From: an uncultured Dehalococcoidaceae bacterium
GTDB taxonomy: Bacteria > Chloroflexota > Dehalococcoidia > Dehalococcoidales > RBG-16-60-22
DNA length: 64,000 bases
Reading direction: 5' to 3'
NCBI GenBank assembly: GCA_964468755.1
Contig: CAYXWH010000001.1
Coordinates: 15,148-79,147 of the forward strand
Shown: positions 10,108-29,841 of the stretch, one piece after another
Layout: each line of letters opens with the position of its first letter
How positions within the stretch are numbered: position 1 is the first letter of the stretch
Translations under genes and position numbers: made by a program
The notes under the pieces: model-generated
The model's database searches: none
The model's input: the letters and a program-made list of their open reading frames with translations, nothing else
What the model was told of the DNA's origin: nothing

Positions 10108-12081
10108 TTGAGCGGTTATCAGGAGCTTATTGGAAACCATACCTTGAAATGGCCCTATCCCGTCAATTACGGTAAGGAGACCGAGGTCAGTACCGATGTC
10201 CTCATCATCGGCGGTGGTGTTGCCGGTTGCCATGCCGCCATCAATGCCGCTAAACAGGGAGTAAAGGTTGCCGTGGTTGACAAGGCTTCAATCTACCGGA
10301 GCGGCTCGGGGGGAGCCGGCGTTGACCACTGGGGCGGTGCTTTGACCAATCCACGCTCCAGAACCACCCCTGAAGAATCGATAGAACTAGCGGAAGGGCC
10401 GTTTATTCCAAGCGACTATTCTCTGGGACATATCCGTTACATTACTTCCAAGGAAAGCTATGATGCCCTCCTTGACATGGAACAGATGGGGATGAAAATC
10501 CGGGACGTGGACGACGAGTTTGTCGGCGCTCCATTCCGGGATGAAGAGACCAGGCTCATGTTTGCCTACGATTACGATAACCCGACCTGTATCCGCGTCA
10601 TGGGATCTAATGTTAAGCCCTGCCTGTATAACGAGCTCAAGCGACTGGGTGTAGAGCTCCGGGAGCATATCATGGTGACCGGACTGCTCAACGAGGGGGG
10701 CAAACAGGGGGGTAGGATAGTCGGCGCCACCGGGGTGAATATCAGGACCGGCGAGTTCTACATCTTCAAGGCGAAAGCTACCATCCTCGCCACCGCCCAG
10801 CCGTTGCGCATCTGGATATTCAACACCGAGCTGGTGGGGTCATATGTTGAGCACGATGACCCGAACCTCGCCGGCGACGGCGATGCCATGGGCTGGCTGG
10901 CCGGCGCCGAGCTGACCATGATGGAGCGGAGCCAGGATTCATCCGGCCCGTTCCGCTATCCGCCTTACGGCACCGGAAACGCGAGCAACACCTGGTTTGC
11001 CTGCAGCATGGTGGACGCTGACGGCAAAGAAATCCCCTGGGTCGACGGTAATGGTAACGTACTGAAAACGGTTGAAGAACGATACCATAACGGCGGAGAA
11101 GGGGGACGCCGGGGCAATGGCGCCCGGCTTATCCCTGACCTGGCCGAGCGCATCACGAAGGGGGAATACAAGCTCCCCCTGTATGCTGATCTGCCCGGCA
11201 TGCCGGAGCATGAGCGAAGGGCAATCTTCGGCTTAATGGTGGGGAACGAGGGCAAGACCCGCATGGCAGTATATGACATGTACACCAGGTATGGATTTGA
11301 CCCGGACAAGGATATGCTCCAGGCTAACGTTTTACCACCGGCACTTGCCGGAAGAATGGGCCCCTGGTGGGATATGAAATCAGCCCTGGCCTCGGCGCCG
11401 CAGTGGCGGGCGACTGCCTTTATCGGCGGCGGCGGACTGCTGGTCGACTGGGATATGAAGACGACGCTCGAAGGTTTATATGCCGCCGGTGCCCAGACCG
11501 CTGGCGGCGGTGGTCATGCCGGGGCGGCTGCCACCGGCAGGTATGCCGGCAGGAAAGCGGCTGCCTACATAAAGGAAGCCGGAGACCCCGTTATCGACCG
11601 CACGCAGGTGGATGAGGAAAAAACCCGGGTCTATTCTCCCGTCGGCCGCAAGGGCGATATCGGCTGGAAAGAGTTGCATGGAGGGATTGCCCGCATCATG
11701 CAAGACTACTGCGGTGAGTACAAGAGCGAGGAAGTCCTCAAGAGGGGGCTGTGGTGGCTGAACAGTATCCGGGAGAGCGAGGCGGAGCGGGTCTATGTCC
11801 GCAACCCGCATGAGCTGGCGCGCTTCCTGGAGACAATGGTACGACTCACCGTAGGTGAGCTAATCATGAACGCATCACTGGCGCGGCAGGCAAGCAGCGA
11901 GCCGCTGGACTTCTGGCGTCTGGACTACCCCGAGGTTGACCCGCCGGAATGGCAGAGGTTTGTCACCATCAGGCTGGAAAACGGCGAGGCTAAGGTGGGT
12001 GAGCGGCCGTTTAAATTCTGGCTGCTGCCGCCCAACGCCCCCACATATGAAGAAAACTACCGGCAGCACTGCGGACTTTAA
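10108..12081 (+). CDS. AprA-like FAD flavoprotein (adenylylsulfate-reductase-alpha / fumarate-reductase superfamily), copy 1, with no adjacent ferredoxin gene
   Basis: 657 aa with a TTG start 7 nt after GAGGAGG. AprA-like blocks include the FAD fold DVLIIGGGVAGCHAA, FYIFKAKATILATA and the C-terminal LDYPEVDPPEWQRFV. It is a close paralog of 18245-20218. Confidence 0.7.
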   Translation: MSGYQELIGNHTLKWPYPVNYGKETEVSTDVLIIGGGVAGCHAAINAAKQGVKVAVVDKASIYRSGSGGAGVDHWGGALTNPRSRTTPEESIELAEGPFIPSDYSLGHIRYITSKESYDALLDMEQMGMKIRDVDDEFVGAPFRDEETRLMFAYDYDNPTCIRVMGSNVKPCLYNELKRLGVELREHIMVTGLLNEGGKQGGRIVGATGVNIRTGEFYIFKAKATILATAQPLRIWIFNTELVGSYVEHDDPNLAGDGDAMGWLAGAELTMMERSQDSSGPFRYPPYGTGNASNTWFACSMVDADGKEIPWVDGNGNVLKTVEERYHNGGEGGRRGNGARLIPDLAERITKGEYKLPLYADLPGMPEHERRAIFGLMVGNEGKTRMAVYDMYTRYGFDPDKDMLQANVLPPALAGRMGPWWDMKSALASAPQWRATAFIGGGGLLVDWDMKTTLEGLYAAGAQTAGGGGHAGAAATGRYAGRKAAAYIKEAGDPVIDRTQVDEEKTRVYSPVGRKGDIGWKELHGGIARIMQDYCGEYKSEEVLKRGLWWLNSIRESEAERVYVRNPHELARFLETMVRLTVGELIMNASLARQASSEPLDFWRLDYPEVDPPEWQRFVTIRLENGEAKVGERPFKFWLLPPNAPTYEENYRQHCGL

Positions 12082-12155
12082 ACCCGGCATGTTGCTATCG
12101 CATAAAATAATTAAATAAAAACTATTTAAATAGAGAAAGGGGATACATCATCGCT

Positions 12156-14117
12156 ATGAGCAAATTACTGTGGGAACCTACCGAGGAAACAATAAAACAG
12201 GCTAACATGACCAGATTTATCAACTTTGTCAATGAAAAACAAGGCATGAAACTAAACTCGTATGATGACCTCTATCAGTGGTCAATCGAGAATATACCTG
12301 AGCTCTGGGGAGCCGTCTGGGAATTCACCGATGTCAAAGCTTCGCGCGGCTATGACCGGGTGGTCGACGACCTCAATAAGTTCCCCGGTGCCACGTGGTT
12401 TGAAGGCGCCCGGCTGAACTTCGCCGAGAACCTGCTCCGCTACCGCGATAACCACACGGCATTCATCTTCAGGGGCGAGGATAAGAAATATACCCGCATG
12501 ACCTACGCCGAACTCTACTATACAGTAGCTCGCCTCGCCAAATCATTGCGTGAAATGGGGGTGAAGCCCGGGGACCGGGTAGCCGCCTATATGCCCAACT
12601 TGATAGAGACCGCTGTTGCCATGCTGGCGGCTACCAGTATCGGGGCGGTCTGGGCATCCTGCGCCACTGACCTTGGCCCGGGAGCTGTAATCGACCGTCT
12701 CGGGCAAATCGAACCGAAGGTCCTTTTCACCGTTGACGGCTATTTCTACAAAGCCAAGACCTTCAGCTCACTGGCCAACGCCGCCGAAATCGCCAACGGG
12801 ATACCGTCTCTGGAAAAGGTCATCGTGGTCCGTTATACCGAAGCGGACTCGGATATCAGCCAGATTCCCAACTCCGTCTACTATGACGTCTTTACCTCCC
12901 AGGAAGAAAAACCCGAGATTGAATTTGAACAACTCCCATTTATGCACCCGTTACTCATCATGTTCTCTTCCGGAACCACCGGAAAGCCAAAGTGTCTCGT
13001 CCAGAGTGCCGGAGGTATCCTGCTTAACCACGCGAAAGAGCTCATGATTCAGTCCGACGTCAAACGCGAGGACAAAATCTTCTACATCACCACCTGTAGC
13101 TGGATGATGTGGAACTGGCTGATCAGTTCTCTGGGAATCGGGGCGACAGTCATCCTCTACGACGGCAACCCCATGTACCCGGACGCCGGTGCCATGTGGA
13201 AGCTCATCCAGGATGAAAAGATAACCATTTTCGGCACCAGTGCCAGCTTCATTAACTACTGCAAGAGCGAAGGACTACAACCGGGCAAGGACTATAACCT
13301 TTCATCGATGCGGGAGATGTGTCAGACCGGCTCGGTGCTTTCCAGCGATGGTTTTGAATACATCTATGAGGCGATCAAGAAAGACCTGCACTTCAATTCC
13401 ATCGCCGGTGGTACCGACATTAACGGTTGCTTCGCCATCGGAAGCCCCACTGTCCCCGTTTACGCCGGTGAGCTACAGAGGTGGGGATTGGGCTTCAAGA
13501 TGAAATGCTACAACGAGAACGGCAAACCGGTAGTCGACCAGCTGGGTGAACTCGTCTGTGAAGCGCCCGCTCCGCCCATGCCACTCTACTTCTGGAATGA
13601 CCCGAACAATGAACGGTACATGGATGCATACTTCAACGTATATCCGGGAATCTGGCGCCACGGCGATTATGTCATGGCCCACAGTGATACCAACGGGGTA
13701 ACCTTCTTCGGTCGCTCCGATGCCCTCCTCAAACCTTCGGGAGTACGTATCGGCACGGCGGAAATCTATAATCAGGTAGAACTGCTGGATGAAATCGCCG
13801 ATAGCCTGGCGATAGGTCAGGACTGGAAGGGCGACCAGCGGGTGATACTTTTTGTGAAACTCGCCGAGGGATACGAACTGACCGAGGAACTGGAGAAGAA
13901 GATTAAAACGACCCTCCGGGTGAAAGCCTCGCCCCGGCATGTTCCGGCACGAATTCTCACCGCTCCCGACATTCCTTACACCCTTAATGGCAAGAAGGTG
14001 GAGACTGCGGTTACCAATATCATTCAGGGCAAGCCCGTATTGAACCGGGATGCCTTGAGCAACCCCGAATCGCTGGACTTCTACGAAAATATTGTCCCCG
14101 AACTGGAGAGGGCCTAA
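12156..14117 (+). CDS. aacS: acetoacetate--CoA ligase (acetoacetyl-CoA synthetase)
   Basis: 653 aa. The N-terminus MSKLLWEPTEETIKQANMTRF, the AMP-binding motif MFSSGTTGKPKC and the overall length fit the AacS subfamily of acyl-CoA synthetases. Confidence 0.75.
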   Translation: MSKLLWEPTEETIKQANMTRFINFVNEKQGMKLNSYDDLYQWSIENIPELWGAVWEFTDVKASRGYDRVVDDLNKFPGATWFEGARLNFAENLLRYRDNHTAFIFRGEDKKYTRMTYAELYYTVARLAKSLREMGVKPGDRVAAYMPNLIETAVAMLAATSIGAVWASCATDLGPGAVIDRLGQIEPKVLFTVDGYFYKAKTFSSLANAAEIANGIPSLEKVIVVRYTEADSDISQIPNSVYYDVFTSQEEKPEIEFEQLPFMHPLLIMFSSGTTGKPKCLVQSAGGILLNHAKELMIQSDVKREDKIFYITTCSWMMWNWLISSLGIGATVILYDGNPMYPDAGAMWKLIQDEKITIFGTSASFINYCKSEGLQPGKDYNLSSMREMCQTGSVLSSDGFEYIYEAIKKDLHFNSIAGGTDINGCFAIGSPTVPVYAGELQRWGLGFKMKCYNENGKPVVDQLGELVCEAPAPPMPLYFWNDPNNERYMDAYFNVYPGIWRHGDYVMAHSDTNGVTFFGRSDALLKPSGVRIGTAEIYNQVELLDEIADSLAIGQDWKGDQRVILFVKLAEGYELTEELEKKIKTTLRVKASPRHVPARILTAPDIPYTLNGKKVETAVTNIIQGKPVLNRDALSNPESLDFYENIVPELERA

Positions 14118-14160
14118 CCACAGCGCAAAGCCGGATAGTGCTGTCTACAATTTAATACAT

Positions 14161-15351
14161 TTAATAACCCAGCCTGGAGAGTCGGTCGGCTAATTTCTTA
14201 TCCCGGTCTGCCACCCGGTCTATCCGAACCACTGCCGACTTACCCGTTTCTTCCGGTATCCACTCAAATTTGCCCGGGTCAAGCTTATGGCCACTCAGCC
14301 CGGGATAATCAGGGGCATAGCGATAGGCCCGGAAAACCTGGTTGTTCAAGCCAAACACGGGGTGTTCATAGTAAAAGGGGCTGATGAACTCCCAGACGGT
14401 CTCCCCGTCGGGGGTTACCTCAAATATTCGGCCCTTATGTCCCTCACAAACCAGGGTATTCCCGTTGGGCAACCTCTGGCAGCCGGATACTATGGACGAC
14501 TGGAAATTGTGCCTGGTTTTATCCATGTATTCCCACTCGATTTGACCGGTTTTGGGATTCATTTCAACCACACGGGAATAGCTGATATGGGCTGTCCTCC
14601 GGTGGTGACCATTGTCGAAGACCAGGATGTTCCCGTTTTCCAGCAGCGTCGGGTCATGCGGATGAGCCAGCTCCCCGGCTCCCCAGCGCCACTTAATATC
14701 GCCGGTGGTACGGTCAATAATGACCATCCAATCAGTATGGCGGAACGTGGTTAAAATATCTCCATCAGGCATCACAAAACAGGCATTGCCGTGAGTCCAT
14801 TCGGCACGGCCACAGAGGGGGCAGATAATATCAACTTCCGGGTCAAGGTGTTCATAACTCAGCCACTCCCATACAACCTCACCATCCCGGGAAATCTCAC
14901 GGAAGGAATCCGCCCACATCACCCCGTTATGCTCAGTGCCCGGAACACCACCCTTAACCCCGGCGGTAATATCATCCGGCACCTGCACCCATCTCAGATA
15001 CATGGTATTGCCATTGTCCAGTCGGCAAAAGTCATGGTGGTGGTACGTGTCTTCATACTTCCAGATAATGTTGCTATCCCAATCCGCTTCGAGCAGTACA
15101 CCACCGGCCCCACCCATATCCGTCAGGGGGCCATCGAGAACCCTCCCTGCATAGAGCAGGTTACCATTGGGTAGCAGCTTCCCGTATTCTCCGGGGATGT
15201 AGGGTAATTTCCAGCGGTGGACAAAGCGGCCCTGCATGTCCACCAGCCACACCATTCCAGTACCCCACGGAGCGAAAAGCGTATACCCGTGAAATGATTT
15301 CGACGAGTCAAATCTGGTTACCAGCTCCGGTTTTCCTTCTTTAAACTGCAT
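14161..15351 (-). CDS. aryl-sulfotransferase (ASST)-like beta-propeller protein, cytoplasmic (no signal peptide)
   Basis: 396 aa. Repeated W-rich propeller blades (LLPNGNLLY, RLDNGNTMY, LENGNILVFDNG, RLPNGNTLV) are typical of the arylsulfotransferase family. Confidence 0.55.
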   Translation of the reverse strand: MQFKEGKPELVTRFDSSKSFHGYTLFAPWGTGMVWLVDMQGRFVHRWKLPYIPGEYGKLLPNGNLLYAGRVLDGPLTDMGGAGGVLLEADWDSNIIWKYEDTYHHHDFCRLDNGNTMYLRWVQVPDDITAGVKGGVPGTEHNGVMWADSFREISRDGEVVWEWLSYEHLDPEVDIICPLCGRAEWTHGNACFVMPDGDILTTFRHTDWMVIIDRTTGDIKWRWGAGELAHPHDPTLLENGNILVFDNGHHRRTAHISYSRVVEMNPKTGQIEWEYMDKTRHNFQSSIVSGCQRLPNGNTLVCEGHKGRIFEVTPDGETVWEFISPFYYEHPVFGLNNQVFRAYRYAPDYPGLSGHKLDPGKFEWIPEETGKSAVVRIDRVADRDKKLADRLSRLGY

Positions 15352-15408
15352 AATAACTCCCCCTTTTTCATTACAGTCTTGAGATAGCCCCGATATTTAT
15401 CCGTATCC

Positions 15409-16743
15409 TTACCGGTAAACACCATACTCTCTAGCCGCTTCGGTTATGGCATGGAGATTATCCGGACTTGCCTCATCAATTACCACGCCGGCATCCAGGA
15501 TAAAACCGCCACCTTTACCGGCAGTCTCTATGAGGTTCCGGCAATACTCCCTGGTCTTTTCCGGTGTACCGGAGACCAGCAGCGACGAAGGAATATTCCC
15601 CATGATACACGCGGTTTGCCCAAGCACTTCCCTGGCTCTGGCCATATCGGTCTGGTCGAAGTGCCACACTACCTTACCCCGGGGCAGGTCTTTGATAATG
15701 TCCAGTCGCGAATTGTAGCCACCCTCAGCAAATAAAGAGGGTATCAGTCCTTCATCAATCAAGCCCAGGATTACCTTCTTGAGGGTAGGCCAGTAAAATG
15801 TCCGGTACTGCCCGGCCGACATAAAGCCGTCAGCGCCTTTATGCAACGGTATAAATATTACCGGAACTCCCGAAGTGTCGGCTGCGGAGACGCCGCGCTT
15901 GATTTCCATGGCAACCAGACCCTCCATAGCTTCCAGAAGCTTGTCCGGCTGCCGGTACATATCCATTATTATCCCCTGAGTACCCCGCAGGGTATCACCG
16001 ATGGTGTCAAATGGCGCCTTGGCCATGCCGCCATTGAACAGCGGCAGTCCCGATGCCATCGCCGCTTCATCACATTTATTAATGATATCCATCCATTTAC
16101 GTGATTCGCTGCCCGCTTCCAGTAGCGCCTGGAACGCAGCCTGGACTTCCGGCCGCCCCAACGGCGCCAGGCTGGGCGCAGTAGCCGGCATTTCGATGAT
16201 ATCGGTAAAGGGCACTAACTTCGCCAAAGGCTCCAGGGTACCGAAGATGCGGGGCATATAGACCCTCAGCCAGAAATCGGACGGGTCTTGAATGAGGATA
16301 TCGTATTCATCGGCTTTCATGTATTCCGCCTCGACACACTGATATGACGTCATCGGCGAGGTGCCATGGCCGGGCCATCGGTATAATCTATAATCAATGA
16401 TTTCCAACGCTTTTCCGGGGCCAATCGCCCCGGGACTGAAAAATACATCCGGGTCAAAGTCACGGGCAAACTGCAACCAGGCATGGCTCAGTTTTTTATA
16501 GTCGTACATGACGGCTTCCGGCGTTAGTCCGGCGTAAAAAGCCGGGTAAAAGCCCATAGACAGGTGGACCGGGACCCGGTCCGGCTGGCGCAAATTGATG
16601 GCATCAACCAGCCTGGTCACCCGTTCCCGGTAGCGTTTCTCAGCCTCCGGACTGGTAAACACCAGTCCTTCCGGGGAAAGCCACTGCTTAAACCGCTCTT
16701 GCCACTTTTCTTCGGCAGATAGTCCCGCCCATTGCTTTTCCAT
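15409..16743 (-). CDS. uroporphyrinogen decarboxylase (URO-D) family protein (methyltransferase/decarboxylase-like)
   Basis: 444 aa. The N-terminal helical extension followed by a TIM-barrel-like body (DRVPVHLSMGFYPAFYAG...IPLHKGADGFMS...GGGFILDAG) resembles non-HemE URO-D family members. Confidence 0.55.
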   Translation of the reverse strand: MEKQWAGLSAEEKWQERFKQWLSPEGLVFTSPEAEKRYRERVTRLVDAINLRQPDRVPVHLSMGFYPAFYAGLTPEAVMYDYKKLSHAWLQFARDFDPDVFFSPGAIGPGKALEIIDYRLYRWPGHGTSPMTSYQCVEAEYMKADEYDILIQDPSDFWLRVYMPRIFGTLEPLAKLVPFTDIIEMPATAPSLAPLGRPEVQAAFQALLEAGSESRKWMDIINKCDEAAMASGLPLFNGGMAKAPFDTIGDTLRGTQGIIMDMYRQPDKLLEAMEGLVAMEIKRGVSAADTSGVPVIFIPLHKGADGFMSAGQYRTFYWPTLKKVILGLIDEGLIPSLFAEGGYNSRLDIIKDLPRGKVVWHFDQTDMARAREVLGQTACIMGNIPSSLLVSGTPEKTREYCRNLIETAGKGGGFILDAGVVIDEASPDNLHAITEAAREYGVYR

Positions 16744-16934
16744 AGCTACTTCACGCCTGCCCGTCCTTTTTAACAGCTCCGCTATGGCATCGCGCCCGGG
16801 CCACTCACCGGGTCTTCAGCCATATAACTATATATTATTACGTTATCACGATACCCAAAATACAACTCGCGCTACTGTCACCTAGAGCTAAAGGGATTGC
16901 CAAGCCCGACCATCCGAATTTTCTGTATAAATAA

Positions 16935-17705
16935 CTATATACGACTGGTCAACCCACCATCCACATAGAGTATTTGTCCGGTAATGAAATTAGATGCCGG
17001 CGAAGCCAGAAACAGGGTAGGTCCAACAATATCCTCAGGCATCGCCCAGCGGCCAATCGGGATGCTCTCCCTTAGCTGCCGGGCTCCCTCAGGACTTTCC
17101 AGAACGGAACGGGTAAATTCAGTCTCGACCACGGTGGGAGCAAGGGCATTGACCAGGATATTGTGTTTTGCCCAGGCACAGGCGAGCGCCTTGGTAATAA
17201 GATTGACCGCAGCCTTGCTGTCGCAGTAGCCAAGACCGCCATCCGGTGGCGCGTAGGAGCCTCTCACCGAAGAAATATTGATGATTCTACCGCCACCCTG
17301 CTTAATCATCATTCTGCCCACTGCCTGGCAACAGAGCAGGGTGCCGCGGGTATTAACATCAATAACCTTCTGCCATTCTTCAATCGGAAAATCGGTGGCG
17401 TCATAACCCCTGATATTTATTCCGGCGGCATTCACCAGAATATCAATGCGGCCAAAGGTATCTATGGCTTTTGTTACCATGCCCGTTACCGACTTCTCAT
17501 CGGTAACGTCTACCTTTACGGCAAGCGCCTTTCTTGCCAGCGCCCTCACCTTCTCGGCTGCCGTCTCAGCCACTTCCAGCCTGCTATCGGCAGTAACTAT
17601 GTCAGCGCCATGCCCGGCAAACCCCAGAGCTTGGGCACTGCCAATACCACCAGCGCCGACTATCATGGCGACCTTCCCGGCAAAGTCAAAAACATCACTC
17701 ATCAT
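16935..17705 (-). CDS. SDR family oxidoreductase (FabG-like), paralog of 21175-21939
   Basis: 256 aa with a glycine-rich GAGGIG motif, NAAG, and catalytic S...YCDSK. Confidence 0.85.
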   Translation of the reverse strand: MMSDVFDFAGKVAMIVGAGGIGSAQALGFAGHGADIVTADSRLEVAETAAEKVRALARKALAVKVDVTDEKSVTGMVTKAIDTFGRIDILVNAAGINIRGYDATDFPIEEWQKVIDVNTRGTLLCCQAVGRMMIKQGGGRIINISSVRGSYAPPDGGLGYCDSKAAVNLITKALACAWAKHNILVNALAPTVVETEFTRSVLESPEGARQLRESIPIGRWAMPEDIVGPTLFLASPASNFITGQILYVDGGLTSRI

Positions 17706-17853
17706 TTTTCCCCTGGATTCATACTATTTTACTATACGGCGTTGTTATCCCCTCCGAAACACACTATCACACCCAACCGCACTATTGTTCAGGTTAGCCA
17801 TCTTGAAGTTAACCCTGAATAACACACTATCTATACAGGCACTGTCCAACCCC

Positions 17854-18204
17854 TTAGCCCACCGGCGGTCTGGTGTTGGGTGGCGGGGGGTTCTTCATGC
17901 CGATGCGGAAGTACTCGCCGGTCGCCTTGCGCTTCCAGCCAACCCGCTGGTTCAACGGGTGCTCCATCCGTATCGCCCCCGGTACCGGACACGGCTCAAC
18001 ACAGCAACCACCAAACCAGCACTCATCAGGATAGAGCACTATAGGCGGTTTGCCCTTCTCCAGATTGGGCACCAGCACATCCGTCCGGCATACCTCCACG
18101 CAATTATTACACCCGGTACAGAGCTCCGGGTCGATGATTATTGCCTGGCATGGGGTCATCGGATTGGGGACCATGTAGGCCTCATTGTAGACTTCGCTCA
18201 CCAT
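17854..18204 (-). CDS. AprB-like 2x[4Fe-4S] ferredoxin subunit, copy 1
   Basis: 116 aa (MVSEVYNEAY...). It has CTGCNNCVEVC and CWFGGCCVEPCP cluster motifs, then a basic beta-hairpin tail WKRKATGEYFRIG as in APS reductase beta. AGGAGG precedes the ATG at 18204. The longer 157-aa ORF in the track is rejected. Confidence 0.65.
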   Translation of the reverse strand: MVSEVYNEAYMVPNPMTPCQAIIIDPELCTGCNNCVEVCRTDVLVPNLEKGKPPIVLYPDECWFGGCCVEPCPVPGAIRMEHPLNQRVGWKRKATGEYFRIGMKNPPPPNTRPPVG

Positions 18205-18244
18205 TAGACAAGACCTCCTTATTTTTAAAGTAACCCGGTAAGAG

Positions 18245-20218
18245 TTAGAGACCGCTATGCAATTTGTAATTCTCTTCATAAGTAGTCGCATAGGGCGGAC
18301 GCAGCCAGAAATCAAGGGGTCGCTCACCTACCCTTACCTTGCCGTTTTCCAGCTTGATGGTGACAAACTTCTGCCATTCCGGCGGGTCAACCTCGGGGTA
18401 GTCCAGACGCCAGAAGTCCAGCGGCTCGCTGCTTGCCTGCCGCGCCAGTGATGCGTTCATGATTAGCTCACCTACGGTGAGTCGTACCATTGTCTCCAGG
18501 AAGCGCGCCAGCTCATGCGGGTTGCGGACATAGACCCGCTCCGTCTCGCTCCCCCGGATACTGTTCAGCCACCACAGCCCCATCTTGAGGATTTCCTCGC
18601 TCTTGTACTTACCACAGTAGTCCTGCATGATGCGGGCAATCCCCCCGTGCAACTCCTTCCAGCCGATATCGCCCTTGCGGCCGACGGGAGCATAGACCCG
18701 GGTTTTTTCATTATCCACCTGCGTGCGGTCGATAACGGGGTCTCCGGCTTCCTTTGCGTAGGCAGCCGCCTTTCTGCCAGTATACCTGCCGGTGGCAGCC
18801 CCCCCGGCATGACCACCACCACCGGCGGTCTGGGCTCCGGCGGCATATAAACCTTCGAGCGTCGTCCTCATATCCCAGTCGACCAGCAGTCCGCCGCCGC
18901 CGATAAAGGCGGTCGCCCGCCACTGCGGCGCCGAGGCGAGACTACTTTTGTGGTCCCACCAGGGTATGAACTCTCCGGCTAATTGCGGGGGCAGGACATT
19001 TGCCTGGAGCATATCCTTGTCCGGGTCAAATCCCGCCCGGGTATATGTCTCATATATGCCAATGCGGGTCTTGCCCTCGTTGCCCACCATTAAACCGAAC
19101 AGTGCCCTCCGTTCATGCTCCGGCATACTGGGCAAATCAGCATACAGGGGGAGCTTGTATTCCCCCTTCGCGATGCGCTCGGCAAGGTCAGGTATAAGCC
19201 GGGCTCCGTCACCAAAGGGACCACCTTGCCCCAAACGGGTCCGTTCTTCAACCGTCTTCAGCACATTACCATTACCATCGACCCAGGGGACTTCTTTGCC
19301 GTCGGCGTCAACTATGTTGCAGGCGAACCAGGTGTTGTGCGCATTGCCGGTGCCGTAGGCCGGATAGCGGAACGGGCCGGCTGACTCCTGGCTCCGCTCC
19401 ATCATGGTCAGCTCGGCGCCGGCCAGCCACCCCATGGCGTCACCGTCGCCGGCGAGGTTCGGGTCATCATGCTCAACATTTGACCCCACCAGCTCGGTGT
19501 TGAATATCCAGATGCGCAGCGGCTGGGCGGTGGCGAGGATGGTAGCTTTCGCCTTGAAGATATAGAACTCGCCGGTCCTGATATTCACCCCGGTGGCGCC
19601 GACTATCCTGCCCCCCTGTTTACCCCCCTCGTTGAGCAGTCCGGTCACCATGATATGCTCCCGGAGTTCTACGCCCAGTCGTTTCAGCTCGTTATACATG
19701 ATGGGCTTGACATCGGCTCCCATGACACGGATAACCGAGCGGTCATTCACATAGTCATAGGCAAACATGAGCCTGGTCTCTTCATCCCGGAATGGGGCGC
19801 CAACAAATACATCATCGACATCTCTAATTTTCATCCCCATCTGTTCCAGGTCAAGGAGGGCATCATAACTTTCCTTGTGCACGATGTAGGTAAGATGCCC
19901 CATGGAATATCTACCGGTAAAAGGTCCCTCTCCACGCTGCTTCATCACGTCTTCCGGGGTTATCTTCGAGCACGGGTTGGTAACCGCTCCATGCCAGTGG
20001 TCAACGCCGGCTCCCCCCGAGCCGCTCCGGTAGATTGAAGCCTTGTCGACTACCGCAACCTTTACCCCTCTTTTCGCGGCATTGATAGCGGCATGGCACC
20101 CAGCAACACCACCACCGATGATGAGGACATCAGCGCTGACCTCGGTCTCCTTACCGTAATTGACTGGATAGGGCCATTTCAAGGTATGTCTTCCTACTGG
20201 TTCCTGATAGCTCGACAA
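18245..20218 (-). CDS. AprA-like FAD flavoprotein, copy 2 (paired with AprB-like 17854-18204)
   Basis: 657 aa when started at the TTG at 20218, which is homologous to the copy-1 start and preceded by AAGGAGG. Nucleotide identity to copy 1 is roughly 90-95% (estimated by eye). Confidence 0.7.
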   Translation of the reverse strand: MSSYQEPVGRHTLKWPYPVNYGKETEVSADVLIIGGGVAGCHAAINAAKRGVKVAVVDKASIYRSGSGGAGVDHWHGAVTNPCSKITPEDVMKQRGEGPFTGRYSMGHLTYIVHKESYDALLDLEQMGMKIRDVDDVFVGAPFRDEETRLMFAYDYVNDRSVIRVMGADVKPIMYNELKRLGVELREHIMVTGLLNEGGKQGGRIVGATGVNIRTGEFYIFKAKATILATAQPLRIWIFNTELVGSNVEHDDPNLAGDGDAMGWLAGAELTMMERSQESAGPFRYPAYGTGNAHNTWFACNIVDADGKEVPWVDGNGNVLKTVEERTRLGQGGPFGDGARLIPDLAERIAKGEYKLPLYADLPSMPEHERRALFGLMVGNEGKTRIGIYETYTRAGFDPDKDMLQANVLPPQLAGEFIPWWDHKSSLASAPQWRATAFIGGGGLLVDWDMRTTLEGLYAAGAQTAGGGGHAGGAATGRYTGRKAAAYAKEAGDPVIDRTQVDNEKTRVYAPVGRKGDIGWKELHGGIARIMQDYCGKYKSEEILKMGLWWLNSIRGSETERVYVRNPHELARFLETMVRLTVGELIMNASLARQASSEPLDFWRLDYPEVDPPEWQKFVTIKLENGKVRVGERPLDFWLRPPYATTYEENYKLHSGL

Positions 20219-20407
20219 TTCCTTCCTCCTTGAACACATTAAGATTAGTATCCTGAACGGCTATACACCGGCAGCCGTTGTCTACCAATTTTCTTAAATG
20301 TTTAATATATTTATGTGGAGGATTGTCTCATTACTTTAGCTAGAAATGATTTCTGTACGGATTATCTATAATACCACCGGCGAATGTCAACAGTCCAGTA
20401 GTGAACA

Positions 20408-20436
20408 TTGACAAATCGTGCACGACATGATAATAT
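20408..20436 (+). promoter_or_regulatory. sigma70-type promoter TTGACA-17-TAATAT abutting the Lrp start codon
   Basis: The -35 is at 20408-20413 and the -10 at 20431-20436. The ATG at 20446 lies 10 nt after the -10 with no SD. Confidence 0.5.
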
Positions 20437-20445
20437 TCAGTCGAA

Positions 20446-20877
20446 ATGACCGTTGATGAACTGGACAAAATATTAATAAAACTCCTCTCGGAAAACGCAA
20501 GACAGAGCAGCTATCAACTCGCCAAACAAGTGAACGTAAGCCCCAGCACTATAAGGAGAAGGATAAGGGAGCTTATTAAAAACGGCATCATCCGCACCAC
20601 CCTCACCATTGATTATGCGTCACTTGGTCTCCCCCTGGCAGCCCATATTGCATTGAATGTAAACCACGAGCAACTGGAGTCCGTCTGGGAAGCACTGCGG
20701 AAACTTCCCAATATAAAGCACGTTTCAATTACTGCCGGCAGATTTGATGTAATGGGAATGGTCCGGGTTTCATCCACGGAAGAGCTCTTAAAATTTGTCC
20801 AAAAGCAGATTACCCAGATACCCGGCGTGGAGAAGTGTGAAACGTTCATTTGCTTGCGTATGGAAAGGGCAACCTGA
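20446..20877 (+). CDS. Lrp/AsnC family transcriptional regulator
   Basis: 143 aa with an N-terminal HTH (LDKILIKLLSENARQSSYQLAKQVNVSPSTIRRRIRELI) and a C-terminal AsnC-type ligand domain. Confidence 0.85.
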   Translation: MTVDELDKILIKLLSENARQSSYQLAKQVNVSPSTIRRRIRELIKNGIIRTTLTIDYASLGLPLAAHIALNVNHEQLESVWEALRKLPNIKHVSITAGRFDVMGMVRVSSTEELLKFVQKQITQIPGVEKCETFICLRMERAT

Positions 20878-21174
20878 TATTATATAGATAATAATCCCGG
20901 TAAAAATCATCATGAATGCTTGTGTCCTAGCAATGGGCCATAAATAAACAATCTGGATAAAGCCAGGATCAGTGACAATCACCAGTAGAAAACGAGAGTG
21001 ACTATCAGCTACCCAAAACGAGCCTAATACACCTAATACGAGGTCAAGTGGAGGGAGTCTGTTGGGGTTTACCTCACCGGAGCGGTTGTTCGCACTACCA
21101 CCGGAGCAGAAGGGGGTGATGCCAGCAACACGTTGACTTAAATTGGCGCGATAATTTTATGTAAGGAGGGTACT

Positions 21175-21939
21175 ATGGCTGATTTATTTGATTTGACAGG
21201 AAAGGTTGCTGTCGTCACCGGTGGTGCGGGTGGCATCGGGTATGCTATCACGCTCGGGCTTGCTGATGCCGGTGCCGATGTGGTTGTCGCCAGTCGTAAG
21301 CTGGAGCACCTGAAGCCAGTGACCGAGGAGATTCGCAAAAAGGGCAGAAAATCACTGGCAGTCAGTGTCGACGTCGTTGATGAGAAGTCGACAAGCGATA
21401 TGGTAAAGAAGGTGATTGACGAGTTCAAGCGCATTGACATTCTGGTAACAGCCCACGGCCTCGCCATCCGGAACCCGGCTGATACTTTCTCGGTTGAAGA
21501 CTGGCAAAAAGTAATGGATATCAATGCACGCGGTGTTTTCATGACCAACCAGGCAGTGGGCCGGGAGATGATCAAGCAGAAAAGCGGCAAGATTATCAAC
21601 CTGTCTTCGGTGAGGGGCAGATATGGGCTCCCCAATGGCTATGTGGCTTATTGCCCCAGCAAAGGTGCTGTCGATATGCTAACGAGAACGCTTGCGTGTG
21701 AGTGGGCCAAATATAATGTTCTGGTAAATGCAGTCGCTCCAACTTTTGTAGAAACCGAGCTTACCCGGACTGCTCTTGCTAATCCCGAGTTTGCCGCTCA
21801 GGTTAAGGCTCGTATTCCGCTGGGCCGCTGGGCGTTGCCTGAGGATATTGTTGGCCCCACCCTGTTTTTCGCCTCGCCAGCATCGGATTTTGTTACCGGG
21901 CAAGTTCTCTACATTGATGGTGGTGTGACCACCTGGTAG
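21175..21939 (+). CDS. SDR family oxidoreductase (candidate phloroglucinol-reductase-type enzyme)
   Basis: 254 aa with TGGAGGIG, catalytic S...YCPSK and an AGGAGG RBS. It is the first gene of a 4-gene string. Confidence 0.8.
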   Translation: MADLFDLTGKVAVVTGGAGGIGYAITLGLADAGADVVVASRKLEHLKPVTEEIRKKGRKSLAVSVDVVDEKSTSDMVKKVIDEFKRIDILVTAHGLAIRNPADTFSVEDWQKVMDINARGVFMTNQAVGREMIKQKSGKIINLSSVRGRYGLPNGYVAYCPSKGAVDMLTRTLACEWAKYNVLVNAVAPTFVETELTRTALANPEFAAQVKARIPLGRWALPEDIVGPTLFFASPASDFVTGQVLYIDGGVTTW

Positions 21940-22000
21940 TAGCATAGTTAAAAAAGCAATAATTTTGCGGAACCTTTTACCACAAAAGGAGTAAGCGCAT

Positions 22001-22339
22001 ATGAAAAAGATAGCACTGGACCAGGTTAAGCCCTACGAGGCACCCGGACACTTTAAAATGGTTGCGCTCAGGTTAGCCGGAAAGGATGAGACCGGTTCCG
22101 AGAAATTCTGGATGGGCATGTCTCATTTCCTCCCCGGAGGCGGTGCCGAATGGGCTTATGAGGACTCACCCGCGGAGAAAGTGTACTTCGTCATTGACGG
22201 TGAAATCACGGTCAAGACCAAAGAGCAGGAAGTTACCGTCGGTCCCATGGAAGGGGTTTTTCTTCCGCCCAATGAGGGAAGAGAAATTCTTAATAAGACC
22301 AACAAGACGGTCAGTATGCTGGTAATAGTTAATTATTAG
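22001..22339 (+). CDS. small cupin domain protein
   Basis: 112 aa with single beta-barrel signatures (GHFKMVALRL...HFLPGGGAEWAYEDSPAEKVYFVIDGEITV). Confidence 0.6.
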   Translation: MKKIALDQVKPYEAPGHFKMVALRLAGKDETGSEKFWMGMSHFLPGGGAEWAYEDSPAEKVYFVIDGEITVKTKEQEVTVGPMEGVFLPPNEGREILNKTNKTVSMLVIVNY

Positions 22340-22659
22340 GATACTATCTTCGGTAGTCTGAGTGATTCGTTTGCCCATGGCTATGGGTAAAATCACTCGG
22401 ACTGCCGTAGGTGGGTTACAGGATGGTTACCCGGTCTTGTATGAGGGGCGGAGGAGCTGTTGTTTGGAGCCAACGGGATAGTGGACACCAAAATAGGCAG
22501 GGTTAGCATAGTGGGGTACCTGTTTCACCGGGGATGGGCCCGGTGCTTGTCAGATGCCAAGTAATCTGCTACCAGTGGAGAGAAAGGCATACAGTTTCCT
22601 TACACCTCATTGACACAGTAACTACTGAGACCAAAAAGGTATGGAAAGAGGGAGATAAC

Positions 22660-23610
22660 ATGCAAGCAAAGGACGTTACCAATATCTCGTTAATTGGTGC
22701 GGGCATGATAGCGCCTGGCGTTGCTCAGATATTCGCCACCGGCAACTACAATGTATGTATCTATGCCCGAAGACAGGAAGCACTGCCCACCGCTCTTGAC
22801 CGTATCAGGTCAAATCTCTCGACCATGGCCAAAAGTGGACTAGTCTCAGAAAATGACATTGAGCCAACGGTGAGCCGGATAAAAACGACCACCAATCTGG
22901 CTGAAGCGGCGACTGATGCTCATCTGGTTATCGAATGTATTGCCGAAAATCTGGAGGTAAAGCAGAATATCTTCCAACAGCTGGACCAACTTAGCCCGGC
23001 AGACGCCATTCTGGCAACCAACACCTCGGTAATCAGCATAACCCAGATTGCCGCCACGTCTAAAAACAGGCAGAGAATCCTGGGGACCCATTTCTGGAAC
23101 CCGCCTTACATGATTCCCCTGGTAGAAGTCGTCAAGGGAGATGAAACCTCTGACGAAGCCATGGAGATAACCTATCAGGTTATGAAGGCAGCGGGTAAAC
23201 ACCCGGTGAAGTGCCTGAAGGATGTCCCCGGATTTATCGCCAACCGAATGCAGCATGCCCTGTGGCGGGAAGCAATTTCCATCGTGGAAAACGGTATTTG
23301 TGACGCCGCCACTGTCGATGAAGCCCTCAAGAATAGCTTTGCTATCCGTCTCCCGGTCCTGGGACCAATTGAGACCGCGGATATGGTGGGGCTTGACCTG
23401 ACCCTATCCATCCACGATTACATTTTCAAGCACCTTGAATCCTCACGTGAAGCGTCCCCCCTTATCAAAGAGAAGGTGAAGAAGGGAGACCTGGGGTTCA
23501 AAACGGGTCAGGGTCTTCAGAAGTGGTCGCCTGAGGAGGCTCAGCAGTCACGCGACAGATTGCTGGAATACCTTATCGAATGGAGCAAGAGGACACAGGG
23601 TAAAGCCTAG
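22660..23610 (+). CDS. 3-hydroxyacyl-CoA dehydrogenase family protein (L-carnitine-dehydrogenase-like NAD-dependent 3-hydroxy acid dehydrogenase)
   Basis: The start is moved to ATG 22660, which follows GGGAGA. It has a Rossmann motif ISLIGAGMIAPGVA, the core NTSVISITQ...HFWNPPYMIPLVEVV, and GFIANRMQ. Confidence 0.8.
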   Translation: MQAKDVTNISLIGAGMIAPGVAQIFATGNYNVCIYARRQEALPTALDRIRSNLSTMAKSGLVSENDIEPTVSRIKTTTNLAEAATDAHLVIECIAENLEVKQNIFQQLDQLSPADAILATNTSVISITQIAATSKNRQRILGTHFWNPPYMIPLVEVVKGDETSDEAMEITYQVMKAAGKHPVKCLKDVPGFIANRMQHALWREAISIVENGICDAATVDEALKNSFAIRLPVLGPIETADMVGLDLTLSIHDYIFKHLESSREASPLIKEKVKKGDLGFKTGQGLQKWSPEEAQQSRDRLLEYLIEWSKRTQGKA

Positions 23611-23683
23611 CGCAGCTCTGGACAGCAATCCGGGCAACTCTTCGTTTAATTTAATAAAATCTAGGGTACTGGAGGAATAAATA

Positions 23684-24619
23684 ATGGATAAACTTATCAT
23701 CACGGCGGCATTAACGGGTAACATCACACTCCCCACCCAGACGCCCTATCTACCGCTGACACCCCAGCAAATTGCCGAGGAGGCGAAAAGGGCGGCTGAT
23801 GCCGGGGCGGCTTCGATACATGTTCATGGCAGAGACCCCAATACCGGAAGGCCGACCACCGACCCCGAAGTATACCGGGAAATCGCCACTCTGATCAAAG
23901 AAAAAACGGACGCCATTGTCTGCATCACCACCGGCGGCACCATGTACATGACCGCCGAGGAACGGGTGCGCGTTGTCCCCGCCCTCAAACCGGAGCTAGC
24001 CACGTTCAACATGGGTTCTATCAACTTCTCCATCCACCCCATTGCGGAACGGTACAAGGACGAGGATTACGTTTATCCCTGGGAGAAAGAATTCGCGGAG
24101 AGCACCAAGGAATTTATCTTCCGCAACACCTTCGCTGATATTGAGCACTTCTGCAAGACAATGCAGGAAAATGACACCAAGCCGGAGCACGAGTGCTATG
24201 ATGTCGGCCACCTCTACAATATGTACTACTTTGTCCGCAAGGGCTTAATCAAACCGCCTCTGTGGATGCAGTTTGTCACCGGCATTCTGGGAGGAATCGG
24301 CTCTAACCCGGAAACTGTCATGTTCCTGAAACAAACGGCTGACCGTTTGTTCGGCGTCGGCACCTATAACTGGTCGGTCATCGGCGCTGGCTACCCGGCA
24401 GAATTTAATGCATGTGCCCTATCAACAATGATGGGAGGACACGCTCGCGTCGGTCTGGAGGATAACATCTTCATTGAGAAAGGCGTCCTCGCCAAGAGCA
24501 ATGGCGAACTGGTCGAGAAGGCGGTGAGAATTGCCAGAGAACTCGGCCGTGAGATTGCCTCCCCTGACGAAGCCAGGCAAATCCTTGGCTTAAAAGGCAG
24601 GGACAAGGTCGGCTACTAG
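23684..24619 (+). CDS. beta-keto acid cleavage enzyme (BKACE / 3-keto-5-aminohexanoate cleavage enzyme family, DUF849)
   Basis: 311 aa. MDKLIITAALTGNITLPTQTPYLPLTPQQIAEEAKRAADAGAASIHVHGRDP is the canonical BKACE N-terminus. Confidence 0.8.
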   Translation: MDKLIITAALTGNITLPTQTPYLPLTPQQIAEEAKRAADAGAASIHVHGRDPNTGRPTTDPEVYREIATLIKEKTDAIVCITTGGTMYMTAEERVRVVPALKPELATFNMGSINFSIHPIAERYKDEDYVYPWEKEFAESTKEFIFRNTFADIEHFCKTMQENDTKPEHECYDVGHLYNMYYFVRKGLIKPPLWMQFVTGILGGIGSNPETVMFLKQTADRLFGVGTYNWSVIGAGYPAEFNACALSTMMGGHARVGLEDNIFIEKGVLAKSNGELVEKAVRIARELGREIASPDEARQILGLKGRDKVGY

Positions 24620-24647
24620 GCGAATAAGCCGGGCAACGTGGTGAACC

Positions 24648-25238
24648 TTATTCAGAATCCCGGCTTGGTGGGCTATCGTCCTTAGCAAATGACTTAAAAA
24701 AAGGCACTTCGCGGTATCTCCAATCCGCTGGCGGGGTTATCTGTGGCGGTGATTGCGTAAAATCAGCAATAACCTCAAAGTCATAAGCGGAGAAATATCG
24801 CAGAAGTGCCTTTTGTAATATACTTCTGACAATTATAAGTACGCTGGCCTCGGCTTCCAGAGCAAGTTTGACAGCCGGCATGAGCCCCCCGCCGGACAGT
24901 TCCACCGGACCAACTTCATCAATCACCACCAGATCACATTTATTGCCTGCCGCCTGCTCGATAGCCCGGCGGGCGAATTGAATTCCGTCGCGGCTAAAAG
25001 TATAGCGCCCGGCTATTTCCTCTTCACCGGATGGGCTGTCACCTGACTTCCGGGCAAAAGGCACCTCTTCGCCGGTTAACACATCAAGTACAGTATAGCC
25101 AGTCCGTACACCGTGCTCGCGTATCTCCGGAGAAATTACGCCGCCGACACTGAGCCCACAGCTCCGTAACCGGCTGATGTACTGCTGACACCAGGTGGTC
25201 TTGCCCGAACCCGGTTTACCGATAACAAGCATATTCAT
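24648..25238 (-). CDS. P-loop NTPase (THEP1/DUF2478-like)
   Basis: 196 aa with Walker A GKPGSGKTT and Walker B DLVVIDEVG. Confidence 0.6.
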   Translation of the reverse strand: MNMLVIGKPGSGKTTWCQQYISRLRSCGLSVGGVISPEIREHGVRTGYTVLDVLTGEEVPFARKSGDSPSGEEEIAGRYTFSRDGIQFARRAIEQAAGNKCDLVVIDEVGPVELSGGGLMPAVKLALEAEASVLIIVRSILQKALLRYFSAYDFEVIADFTQSPPQITPPADWRYREVPFFKSFAKDDSPPSRDSE

Positions 25239-25299
25239 GGCGATAAAATGTAACAGTTAATATTTACTCAAAGCTTTCTGTTTTGTCAACCATCCACTC

Positions 25300-25327
25300 T
25301 TGACAACTAACAATTGTGGTGTATAAT
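25300..25327 (+). promoter_or_regulatory. consensus sigma70 promoter TTGACA-16-TATAAT
   Basis: The -35 is at 25300-25305 and the -10 at 25322-25327. It implies a leader of about 220 nt before the SBP gene. Confidence 0.55.
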
Positions 25328-25546
25328 TCAGACAAAATCATGTGTTACTTTTCCCGGACTAAAGTCAAACCACCATTTACCATACACGACATCACCTATA
25401 GTATCACTGTAATCTGCGATATTAGATAGTCTACTATGCCAGATAGCTATCAACGAAGAGGCGTTCTCACCCTTGAAAGGAGGTGATATTCTGGCGAAGC
25501 AGTATACATGAAACTTTTCGTACAGCAATAACTATTAAAGGAAGGA

Positions 25547-27016
25547 TTGAAGCAAGTGAAAAGGTTAGTTATCATTCCGGTACTAATAATACTTGTCAGT
25601 GCCTCGCTCCTTATCAGTTGTGCTGAACCAGCTCCAGCTCCGGCACCAAGTCCAGCTCCAAGTCCAGCTCCAAGTCCAGCCCCAACCCCAGCACCAAGTC
25701 CAGCACCAAGTCCAGCACCAAGTCCAGCTCCAAGTCCAGCACCAAGCCCAGCACCAACACCGGCGCCAGCGGGACCAGAAGAGATTCTGATTGGTGCTGA
25801 CGCCTGCTTAACCGGCATGTATGCCGGTTTCGGTGAAGGTGCCGTATTTGGGATGGAAGCTGCTGTCGAGGATATTAACAAGCAAGGTGGCATATATATA
25901 GAAGAGTATGGCCGCAAAATCCCTGTCAAACTCGTAGTTGCCGACAATGAAAGCGATCTATCCAAGGCAGGGACTCTGGCTGAAGACCTGATACTCCGCG
26001 ACAAGGTAAAGTTCCTCATGACAACTGGAGCACTGGAGGTTAATTTCCCGATAGCGAGGGTAGCTGAGCGGTACAAAGTCCCATTTATGATCGGACCCGG
26101 TCCCTATGAATCCTGGCAAGCTATGCGTATGGAAGCCGATCCGCCCTGGAAATACACCTGGGGTGTCAGTTTTGCTATAGCCACTCCATCTCCAGAGGGA
26201 GATTTTCGCCATGATACACCGGGATATTCTATGTTTGATGCCTGGTTGGGTGCGCTTCAATTCTTCGGTGATGAGACCAATAAGAAGATAGCTCTCCTGG
26301 CCTCGGATGACCAGGACGGCAGAGGTTGGTATTTGGCGTTTGCACCAACGGCTGAATCAATAGGCATGGAGACTTATCATTCGGATGAACAATTTGGCCT
26401 GGTGCCTATGGATACCACGGACTTTAGCGCCCTGATAGGGAAATGGAAGGCCGACAATTGTGAGCTACTCTGGTCCAATTGTCCGGCGCCCTTTTTCGGG
26501 ACATTTTGGAGACAAGCTCGCACGCTGGGCTATCAACCCAAGCAGGTTTTTGCTACCAGGGCGGGGCTTTTCTACACCGATGTAACAGCGTGGGGAGGTG
26601 ACCTGCCACAGGGTATCTGCAATGAGATGTTCTGGAATCCGTCGATTGAGGGTACTCACGGTATTGGCGACACCACTGCCGTGAGCCTCCATGAAAGATG
26701 GTTTGAAGCGACAGGTCAACCAATGCACCAGATTATGGGCTGGATCTATGCTGATGCGCAAGTCCTGTTCGATGCTATTGAAAGAGCCGGCAGCCTTGAC
26801 GGAGAAAAAGTTAATGCAGCTCTGGCGCAAACCGATATGATGACAATTTATCATCGTGTCGTGTTTGACAAAGATCAGTATAGCCGGATTCCGGTTACTT
26901 TTGGCCAATGGCAGAAGACGGACAAGCCCTGGGTATGGGACAACCCGATAGTCTACTCGGATCATGATTTCATGCCGACCACGGCTGAGATGATATTCCC
27001 TATCCCCTATGACTAG
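25547..27016 (+). CDS. orphan LivK-type (PBP type 1) ABC substrate-binding lipoprotein
   Basis: It has a lipobox LLISC, a 50-residue PAPS linker, then [37 protein letters not shown], which is typical of Leu/Ile/Val-type binding proteins. A likelier start is GTG 25556, 9 nt after AAGGAAGGA. Confidence 0.8.
25628..25777 (+). repeat. 12-nt tandem repeat (CCAAGTCCAGC[T/A]C-type) encoding the (PSPA)n linker
   Basis: About 10 imperfect 12-nt units encode [50 protein letters not shown]. Confidence 0.8.
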
Positions 27017-27091
27017 ACCGGGAAATACCGGAAAGCGTGCTTTCCCACTGACGTCACCTCAGGTTTGACACGATAAAGTACGAAAAGACAA

Positions 27092-27137: not shown

Positions 27138-27182
27138 AGTAATGCCGAATACCAGCCCTTGCCGGTCAGGTGTGGAAACAAG

Positions 27183-27211: not shown

Positions 27212-27243
27212 TGAGTAAATACTAATAGCGCAGGAGGGAAAAC

Positions 27244-29838: not shown

Positions 29839-29841
29839 ACG

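Follow-up and report, generated by a model that had tools for sequence, protein, structure and literature searches.

The stretch of DNA analysed here, 64,000 nucleotides (nt) from an uncultured Dehalococcoidaceae bacterium (GenBank assembly GCA_964468755.1, contig CAYXWH010000001.1, positions 15,148 to 79,147) and in the following called the window, contains a small ferredoxin gene in two almost identical copies. The gene, termed beta, putatively encodes the small subunit of a flavoprotein/ferredoxin enzyme, the large subunit of which is encoded by the gene termed alpha. Two alpha and two beta genes are present in the window and one of the alpha genes, alpha1, is without a beta gene in cis. 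It is probable that the second beta gene is a lineage-specific duplicate, which was kept near-identical to its parent by gene conversion.

The two copies form a direct repeat of 368 nt each, located at positions 17854–18221 (copy 1) and 37034–37401 (copy 2) on the minus strand with an offset of 19,180 bp. Copy 1 holds the canonical position 40 nt downstream of alpha2, while copy 2 follows fer73, a gene for a 73-amino acid (aa) ferredoxin, at a distance of 113 nt. A direct comparison showed that the copies differ in the window at only two of 368 positions, 17860/37040 and 17863/37043 (C in copy 1, T in copy 2 at both sites), and both differences are synonymous third-position changes (Val115 GTG/GTA and Pro114 CCG/CCA) located 7–10 nt from the border of the repeat. 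The repeat and the stop codon TAA (17854–17856 and 37034–37036) begin with the same base. Its far end lies 2 nt past the AGGAGG of the ribosome-binding site (RBS; 18214–18219) and 17 nt 5′ of the start codon (ATG, 18202–18204). The minus-strand open reading frame of each copy (17854–18204 with the ATG at 18204, and 37034–37384 with the ATG at 37384) encodes an identical protein of 116 aa, and the 17-nt leader is identical as well. The 150 nt flanking each copy on either side match at chance level only. These findings agree with an earlier note on this DNA, which had described a stop-codon-to-RBS duplicate with two synonymous changes and unrelated flanks; its figure of roughly 90–95% identity for the partner AprA-like genes, i.e., alpha1 and alpha2, has to be lowered to 86–87%. 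The comparison of the window with itself by BLAST, as proposed in the note, returned the 368-bp pair as the sole near-identical repeat. The next-best repeats are the alpha pair (87%), a pair of short-chain dehydrogenase/reductase (SDR) genes (69%) and a pair of MFS transporter genes (68%), and no further near-identical repeat was found in the window, where the beta unit occurs in two copies only.

Whether both loci exist was judged from public metagenome contigs of the same population, which are 99.8–99.97% identical to the window, stem from at least eight samples and various assemblers and were retrieved with the sequences of flavo535 (the 535-aa flavoprotein gene followed by fer73), SDR, the molybdopterin oxidoreductase (Mo-oxidoreductase) downstream of copy 2, AsnC and fer73. 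For copy 1, the SDR-side junction is reproduced by contigs of eight samples (L152–L159) and the alpha2-side junction by two contigs (L164, L165). For copy 2, the Mo-oxidoreductase-side junction is reproduced by L160–L163 and the fer73-side junction by L147/L170, L148, L171 and L172. Without exception, the two single-nucleotide polymorphisms (SNPs) at the border occur together with the flank to which they belong, and each copy keeps its own bases at these sites in all of the 12 assemblies that extend so far. De Bruijn assemblers break at two-copy repeats. Every independent short-read contig ends inside the repeat, the start of the Logan contigs (k = 31) precedes the first copy-specific SNP by exactly 30 nt, and contig k141_695216 (19,315 nt) corresponds exactly to the inter-repeat segment with both ends within the repeat. 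Both loci are real and the repeat is not a chimera. An assembly chimera, in which one of the two loci would be nonexistent, could draw only on the general risk that repeats pose in metagenome-derived contigs, and with each of the four junctions present in two to eight independent assemblies from differing assemblers and samples it can practically be dismissed.

The interior of the repeat is a different matter. In all four independent fer73-side assemblies copy 2 carries five extra differences at 37271, 37280, 37283, 37284 and 37304, i.e., within a patch at 37271–37304 (18091–18124 in copy 1), which result in the exchange Asn34Ser and three synonymous changes. Copy 1 shows the patch version of the window in both alpha2-side assemblies (L164, L165), and the window has this copy-1 version in both copies. 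For ERZ27256778, both sides were obtained from one k = 141 assembly, with the reference patch in copy 1 and the alternative patch in copy 2, and its contigs end exactly 141 nt past the last patch site, at 17950 and 37130. As the patch lies 97–131 nt from unique flanking sequence and k is 141, the linkage of the patch to the flank is physical. The natural population thus has copies with differences at seven of 368 positions (98.1% identity), and the lower count of two in the window is due either to a strain-specific conversion or to an assembler collapse of the repeat interior. The check for an assembly artefact suggested in the earlier note thus confirmed all four junctions but does not vouch for the identity of the interior. 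A donor for the alternative patch was sought in the window (allowing up to three mismatches) and in all fetched loci, and the alternative patch was present only in the fer73-side contigs. Polarization with the outgroup locus L169 was ambiguous, as the outgroup has the alternative base at two sites, the reference base at one and neither at two.

A collapse of the interior would mean that the loci are real but that a short-read assembler popped the internal bubble and threaded one interior through both copies. This technical explanation, which is compatible with gene conversion, is a serious possibility, falling somewhat short of an even chance. It fits with the only differences left in the window being those next to the repeat border, with the consistent assignment of the two patch versions to the copies in the other assemblies and with the breakage of all other short-read contigs inside the repeat. 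Against it stands a real strain-specific conversion of alpha2 in the strain of the window, described below, which makes a real conversion of beta plausible.

The seven differences between the beta copies fall into two islands, five within 34 nt and two within 4 nt at the 3′ end, and 324 nt are identical; upon random placement of seven differences, the two longest identical runs sum up to at least 324 nt with P = 3e-4. Local divergence within the islands is 15–17%, similar to the average between alpha1 and alpha2 (13.8%). The beta differences form a mosaic and are not the product of clock-like point mutation. The two beta genes are 98.1–99.5% identical to each other and 80.5% identical to the beta gene of L169, and the two alpha genes are 86% identical to each other and 77% to the alpha gene of L169, so that for both subunits the paralogs are nearer to each other than to the orthologue. 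Same-contig ferredoxin paralogs in relatives show 60–79% nucleotide identity.

In the alpha pair, conversion is demonstrable. Alpha2 (18245–20218, minus strand), the cis partner of beta copy 1, encodes a 657-aa FAD flavoprotein of the AprA/SdhA superfamily, and alpha1 (10108–12081, plus strand) encodes the paralogous 657-aa flavoprotein in inverted orientation with 86% nucleotide identity, followed by a gene for an acetoacetate-CoA ligase. The longest open reading frame of alpha2 starts at ATG 20239 (664 aa); TTG 20218 (657 aa) is the likely start, because it is favored by an RBS, by the alignment with alpha1 and relatives and by the gene calls in other assemblies. Homology between the alpha genes is confined to the coding sequence (CDS), and identity varies between 63 and 100% per 40-codon block, including a perfect run of 174 nt (none in 10,000 permutations, P < 1e-4) and 92 consecutive codons without a third-position change. 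The perfect run covers 11783–11956 of alpha1 (plus strand) and 18370–18543 of alpha2. In the sister strain of ERZ27256778 (L152 vs. L164) nine alpha1/alpha2 differences are found inside this tract, where the window has none, and L165 has the same alpha2 variants. The last alpha2-specific site and the first converted one are just 7 nt apart; for this reason k-mer path switching cannot have made the tract. It is a recent conversion in the strain of the window, mostly from alpha1 to alpha2. Furthermore, strain differences are concentrated in the paralogs: in L164 all 12 of 12 lie in alpha2 (P = 3e-7), and in L147 five of 11 lie in the repeat (P = 8e-6). The alternatives offered in the earlier note for the origin of the duplicate, recent duplication or gene conversion, are both supported by these island-like differences and the alpha tract as well as by the empty site described below.

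Outside the paralogs, strain differences are also tightly clustered, at 20367–20378, 22390–22420, 32202–32282, 36753–36759, 37010–37012 and 43815–43943, with eight changes in 31 nt at 22390–22420 in L167, which suggests short recombination patches or hypervariable intergenic spots. The window also contains two inverted pairs of diverged paralogs, SDR (16946–17390 vs. 21486–21931, 69% nucleotide identity) and MFS (39706–40238 vs. 43173–43705, 68%), and neither of these pairs shows a sign of homogenization.

Copy 2 is located at the 3′ end of an operon formed by flavo535 (37796–39403, minus strand, 535 aa) and fer73 (37498–37719, minus strand, a 2x[4Fe-4S] ferredoxin), a pair that is conserved in relatives. 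A PsrABC-like molybdopterin oxidoreductase operon begins 369 nt downstream of it; the first gene of this operon encodes the PsrA/PhsA-like catalytic subunit (33917–36664, minus strand). The flavo535-fer73 pair is kept in about 45 related loci, and in none of them a beta gene follows fer73. The closest relative found, metagenome-assembled genome (MAG) GCA_964489415.1, shares flavo535 (84% aa identity), fer73 (86%) and the Mo-oxidoreductase (87%) with the window (L150; also L151), and at L150 fer73 and the Mo-oxidoreductase are separated by a 236-nt spacer without a beta gene, i.e., by an empty site. Elsewhere in this genome, on a different contig (L169), alpha and beta form an ordinary pair. 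As copy 2 is absent at the orthologous junction of the closest relative and in the roughly 45 flavo535-fer73 loci, gene order across these genomes identifies it as a lineage-specific duplicate. Comparison with related genomes, another check named in the earlier note, thus bore out a second copy peculiar to this lineage, and at locus 2 no relative was found to have a beta gene of old divergence. The alpha gene of L169 is equidistant from alpha1 and alpha2 (77.3 and 77.0% nucleotide identity); together with the distance of its beta gene this places both duplications, or the last homogenization, after the split from the L169 lineage. Using the spacer of L150 to define the exact insertion point failed, since the 236 nt and the 833 nt of the window are not alignable and the sequence of the empty site is not reconstructable.

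The empty site would also fit a very recent one-off duplication, by which a gene-sized beta unit was inserted between fer73 and the promoter of the Mo-oxidoreductase through illegitimate or microhomology-mediated recombination. The identity of the copies would then merely reflect youth, and their few differences would have arisen later, either by faulty DNA synthesis close to the junction or by one subsequent import. Break-induced synthesis is error-prone near junctions. The border SNPs lie within 10 nt of the junction, a microhomology of 3–5 nt (TTA/TTAGC) is present at the junctions of copy 2, and no relative has a beta gene at the position of locus 2. Still, this scenario is rather unlikely. 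Both breakpoints would have to fall by chance 0 and 17 nt from the functional limits of the gene, and the five-SNP patch 97 nt inside the repeat, found in copy 2 of four out of four assemblies, has a probability of about 3e-4 under point mutation, so that a conversion event would be needed anyway. Moreover, the alpha pair is likewise bounded by its CDS at 86% identity, which cannot be due to youth.

According to the gene conversion model, alpha and beta genes would have been duplicated in this lineage, presumably at about the same time, and beta copy 2 would have come to lie behind flavo535 and fer73, at the 3′ end of their operon and with no accompanying alpha gene. Subsequently, conversion events between the paralogs, presumably of the RecA type, would repeatedly have replaced the sequence of one copy by that of the other. 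With its 351 nt, the beta gene has about the length of one conversion tract and would thereby become homogenized almost completely, while the alpha genes of 2 kb would be homogenized in patches. As the segment from RBS to stop codon is the only homologous segment between the two loci, conversion would stop at its ends, and this would create the cassette-like borders.

Several points weigh against this model. Given that no relative has a diverged beta gene at locus 2, the duplication could be very young. The homology at the borders is short; it comprises the AGGAGG leader at one end and, at the other, some 10 nt that include two mismatches, and offers little anchor for a tract reaching the ends. 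The islands could have been imported from a third paralog of beta at some other genomic site instead of being remnants of an old divergence. The patch seen in copy 2 of all four other assemblies is missing from copy 2 of the window, which may reflect an assembler collapse rather than biology. Finally, the relatives L089, L137 and L168 have a beta-less alpha gene without an extra beta gene nearby, which weighs on the role in trans that is proposed for copy 2 below.

The exact borders had led to the description of the unit as a precisely bounded gene cassette in the earlier note. As a description this is apt; as a mobile element it does not hold up. Movement of the RBS-to-stop unit by integron-type, transposable-element or reverse-transcription machinery is highly improbable, although the borders match the limits of a translation unit and in one relative (L001) a DDE transposase fragment and recombinase genes lie beside alpha-beta pairs. 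Neither copy is bracketed by an attC-like site, a terminal inverted repeat, a target-site duplication or a flanking repeat, and a unit with only two copies in the window does not resemble a mobile one. The annotated neighbors are metabolic and transport genes, with no integrase or reverse transcriptase among them (open reading frames scanned to about 46.5 kb). Besides, copying from a transcript should have placed the end of the unit at a terminator and not at the stop codon. A variant of this idea considers the precision from RBS to stop codon as the footprint of retrogene-like copying, from a processed transcript or by templated synthesis, followed by capture in the flavo535-fer73 operon as a shared beta supplied in trans to several alpha proteins; we consider this very unlikely.

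The protein encoded by beta has a canonical first cluster motif of the Fer4 type (C29-x2-C32-x2-C35-x3-C39), a second motif C62...C67-C68-x3-C72-P with Gly in place of the family-majority Cys65, and a strongly conserved C-terminal tail of 40 aa (GWKRK-TGEYFRIGMKNPPPPNTRPPVG). The Gly at codon 65 (18010–18012 and 37190–37192) stands where most members have the second Cys of motif 2 (WFCGCC vs. WFGGCC); Cys67 may substitute for residue 65, or the second cluster may differ, e.g., as a [3Fe-4S] cluster. Against the AprB model TIGR02060 the protein scores 21.0 bits, far below the cutoff of 135.65, and only the region of the first cluster motif is aligned. The label AprB-like used in the earlier note is therefore justified at the level of superfamily and architecture but not as family membership. 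The chain 8a8o_C is among the top solved-structure matches (E = 6e-6). An AlphaFold2 model has a pLDDT of 72 overall with a low-confidence tail (pLDDT 51–63), and a fold search with this model against the Protein Data Bank (PDB) returned generic di-cluster ferredoxins, with AprB at rank 41. As support for an AprB-type assignment the model was set aside, as it reflects a generic ferredoxin core and does not discriminate AprB from other ferredoxins. Similarly, alpha2 and alpha1 score 98.5 and 101.2 bits against the AprA model TIGR02061, neither passing the cutoff of 641.75, the best NCBIfam match of alpha is PRK08275 (198 bits vs. a threshold of 587), and the best solved-structure matches are 8a8o_A (E = 2e-33) and 1jnr_A (E = 3e-25). 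Judged by homology, beta thus appears to be the small subunit of a large uncharacterized flavoprotein/ferredoxin family, the nearest solved relatives of which are a PAPS reductase and AprAB.

This alpha-beta family is multi-copy and occurs in MAGs of Dehalococcoidia, Desulfobacterota, Actinomycetota and Acidobacteriota. Beta directly follows alpha in 64 of 67 assessable alpha genes of the fetched loci, a count that is biased, since many of these loci were fetched via beta, and the alpha-beta order of the copy 1 locus is also found in relatives. An exact-match look-up of the 116-aa ferredoxin and the 657-aa alpha2 protein found no record. A scan of GTDB genomes with the ferredoxin gave a best match of 81–86% aa identity and no genome of the same species, and a search of the literature on the family in Dehalococcoidia returned nothing specific. 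In one subfamily (L039, L041, L042, L051, L052, L056–L058; e.g., L042:8410–10198) an insertion of about 1.4 kb splits the beta ferredoxin. The inserted sequence codes for a pyridine-nucleotide oxidoreductase domain (GltD-like, NAD(P)H/FAD) placed between cluster motifs 1 and 2; the split gene of L042 has an apparent frameshift, possibly a long-read error. This suggests that NAD(P)H is the electron donor for the enzymes of this subfamily and supports beta as the electron-entry subunit. In L001, L002 and L006 (JGI 3300056889 and others) two divergent alpha-beta pairs are arranged head to head with a DDE_Tnp_ISL3 fragment in between, and beside them is a block with genes for a phage integrase, a serine recombinase and an RHS/YD-repeat protein. 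Mobile DNA is thus a neighbor of the family in some genomes.

Both beta copies are intact and have an identical RBS, and as the differences between them are almost all synonymous, they are consistent with purifying selection on both genes. Downstream of alpha1 no ferredoxin gene is present; a remnant was sought, but the homology to alpha2 ends at the stop codon. In its simplest reading copy 2 would supply beta to alpha1 in trans and thereby restore the subunit balance, and the identity of the beta proteins might preserve compatibility with both alpha subunits. The earlier note had likewise proposed that copy 2 may serve the ferredoxin-less alpha gene or, as a second hypothetical role, may add an electron-entry module to the third flavoprotein operon. 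The spacer between fer73 and copy 2 (37402–37497, minus strand; 96 nt, unique, AT-rich with 35% GC) has a promoter-like sequence as its only feature, a weak match at 37477–37448 (TTGCCG-18-GATAAT, 9 of 12 positions). A promoter/terminator scan and RNA folding (z = −0.39) found no terminator or significant RNA structure in it. Given this absence and the weak promoter match, copy 2 is likely read through from the flavo535-fer73 operon.

In relatives, alpha/beta genes are frequently found in linkage with operons of the flavo535-fer73 type. L089, L096, L097, L100, L137 and L168 have an alpha gene behind fer73, and a beta-less alpha seems to be a recurring state with this gene order. A recurrent operon in L089, L137 and L168 (e.g., L168:3942–9197) consists of flavo535, fer73, a beta-less alpha and an arylsulfotransferase gene with flanking MFS transporter genes, and the alpha proteins of L137 and L168 are among the closest homologues of those of the window (80–82% aa identity). 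In a search for the remnant of an excised alpha gene, the spacer behind fer73 and the leader sequences of both alpha genes were compared with those of L137, L089, L096, L097 and L100, and only CDS ends aligned.

The arrangement of the paralogs might permit rearrangements of the region. The inverted alpha genes flank a 6.2-kb segment (12082–18244, with AACS, arylsulfotransferase, URO-D-like, SDR and beta1 genes), which could invert by recombination, and the direct beta repeats flank an 18.8-kb catabolic segment (18222–37033), which could be deleted or amplified. The contigs L152–L155 match the orientation of the window and no alternative isomer was seen, but short-read contigs cannot reveal such isomers. 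Genes for SDR, small cupin, 3-hydroxyacyl-CoA-dehydrogenase-like and BKACE proteins occur in a row. Three of these four families are matched in the gene cluster for anaerobic phloroglucinol degradation of Clostridium scatologenes (PMC10470551), where a “cyclase”-family hydrolase is used and not a cupin. Near this row lie genes for a pyrogallol-hydroxytransferase-like molybdenum enzyme (AhtL-like_1st domain) and an acetoacetate-CoA ligase. By its gene content the region (21175–24619, 27244–30672 and 12156–14117) looks like a polyphenol catabolic island.

As a summary, the phenomenon is of a known type and does not overturn current understanding; the duplicate is real but fairly ordinary. It offers a clean, population-resolved case in which the genes for both subunits of an accessory redox enzyme, here from an uncultured anaerobe, undergo concerted evolution, with conversion tracts that vary between strains. 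It also shows that short-read MAGs distort copy number and identity of short paralogs, and the two-mismatch identity within the window may be inflated. Moreover, the large uncharacterized family of AprAB/PAPS-reductase-like proteins near polyphenol and aryl-sulfate genes should not be annotated as APS reductase.

Among known systems, AprAB (PDB 1jnr, 3gyx) and the AprAB-like PAPS reductase of Methanothermococcus thermolithotrophicus (8a8o) share with the alpha-beta pair the succession of a FAD flavoprotein of the SdhA/FrdA/AprA superfamily and a small ferredoxin with a conserved C-terminal tail and, putatively also in beta, two clusters. In contrast to AprAB, alpha and beta stay far under the curated AprA/AprB thresholds, the family is multi-copy per genome, and its genes lie among polyphenol, aryl-sulfate and methyltransferase genes instead of sat, qmo and dsr. 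With integron cassettes copy 2 has in common that it is a promoter-less single-gene unit with tight borders at the end of another transcription unit. Unlike such cassettes, it lacks attC and an integrase and exists in two copies only, one of which is part of a canonical operon; its tight borders are therefore better explained by the limits of homology. A further parallel is the concerted evolution by gene conversion of duplicated bacterial genes such as tufA/tufB and the rRNA operons (surveyed in PMC6053082). These are housekeeping genes of translation, whereas the present genes code for subunits of a redox enzyme of accessory function in a Dehalococcoidia-like lineage that is uncultured, the beta duplicate is lineage-specific and not ancient, one copy has parted from its alpha gene and RecA dependence is assumed. 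As in tufA/tufB and the rRNA operons, the intragenomic paralogs are more alike than the orthologues, homology is limited to the gene between unrelated flanks, and identity varies in a mosaic manner, the tracts measuring a few hundred bases and being present in some strains only.

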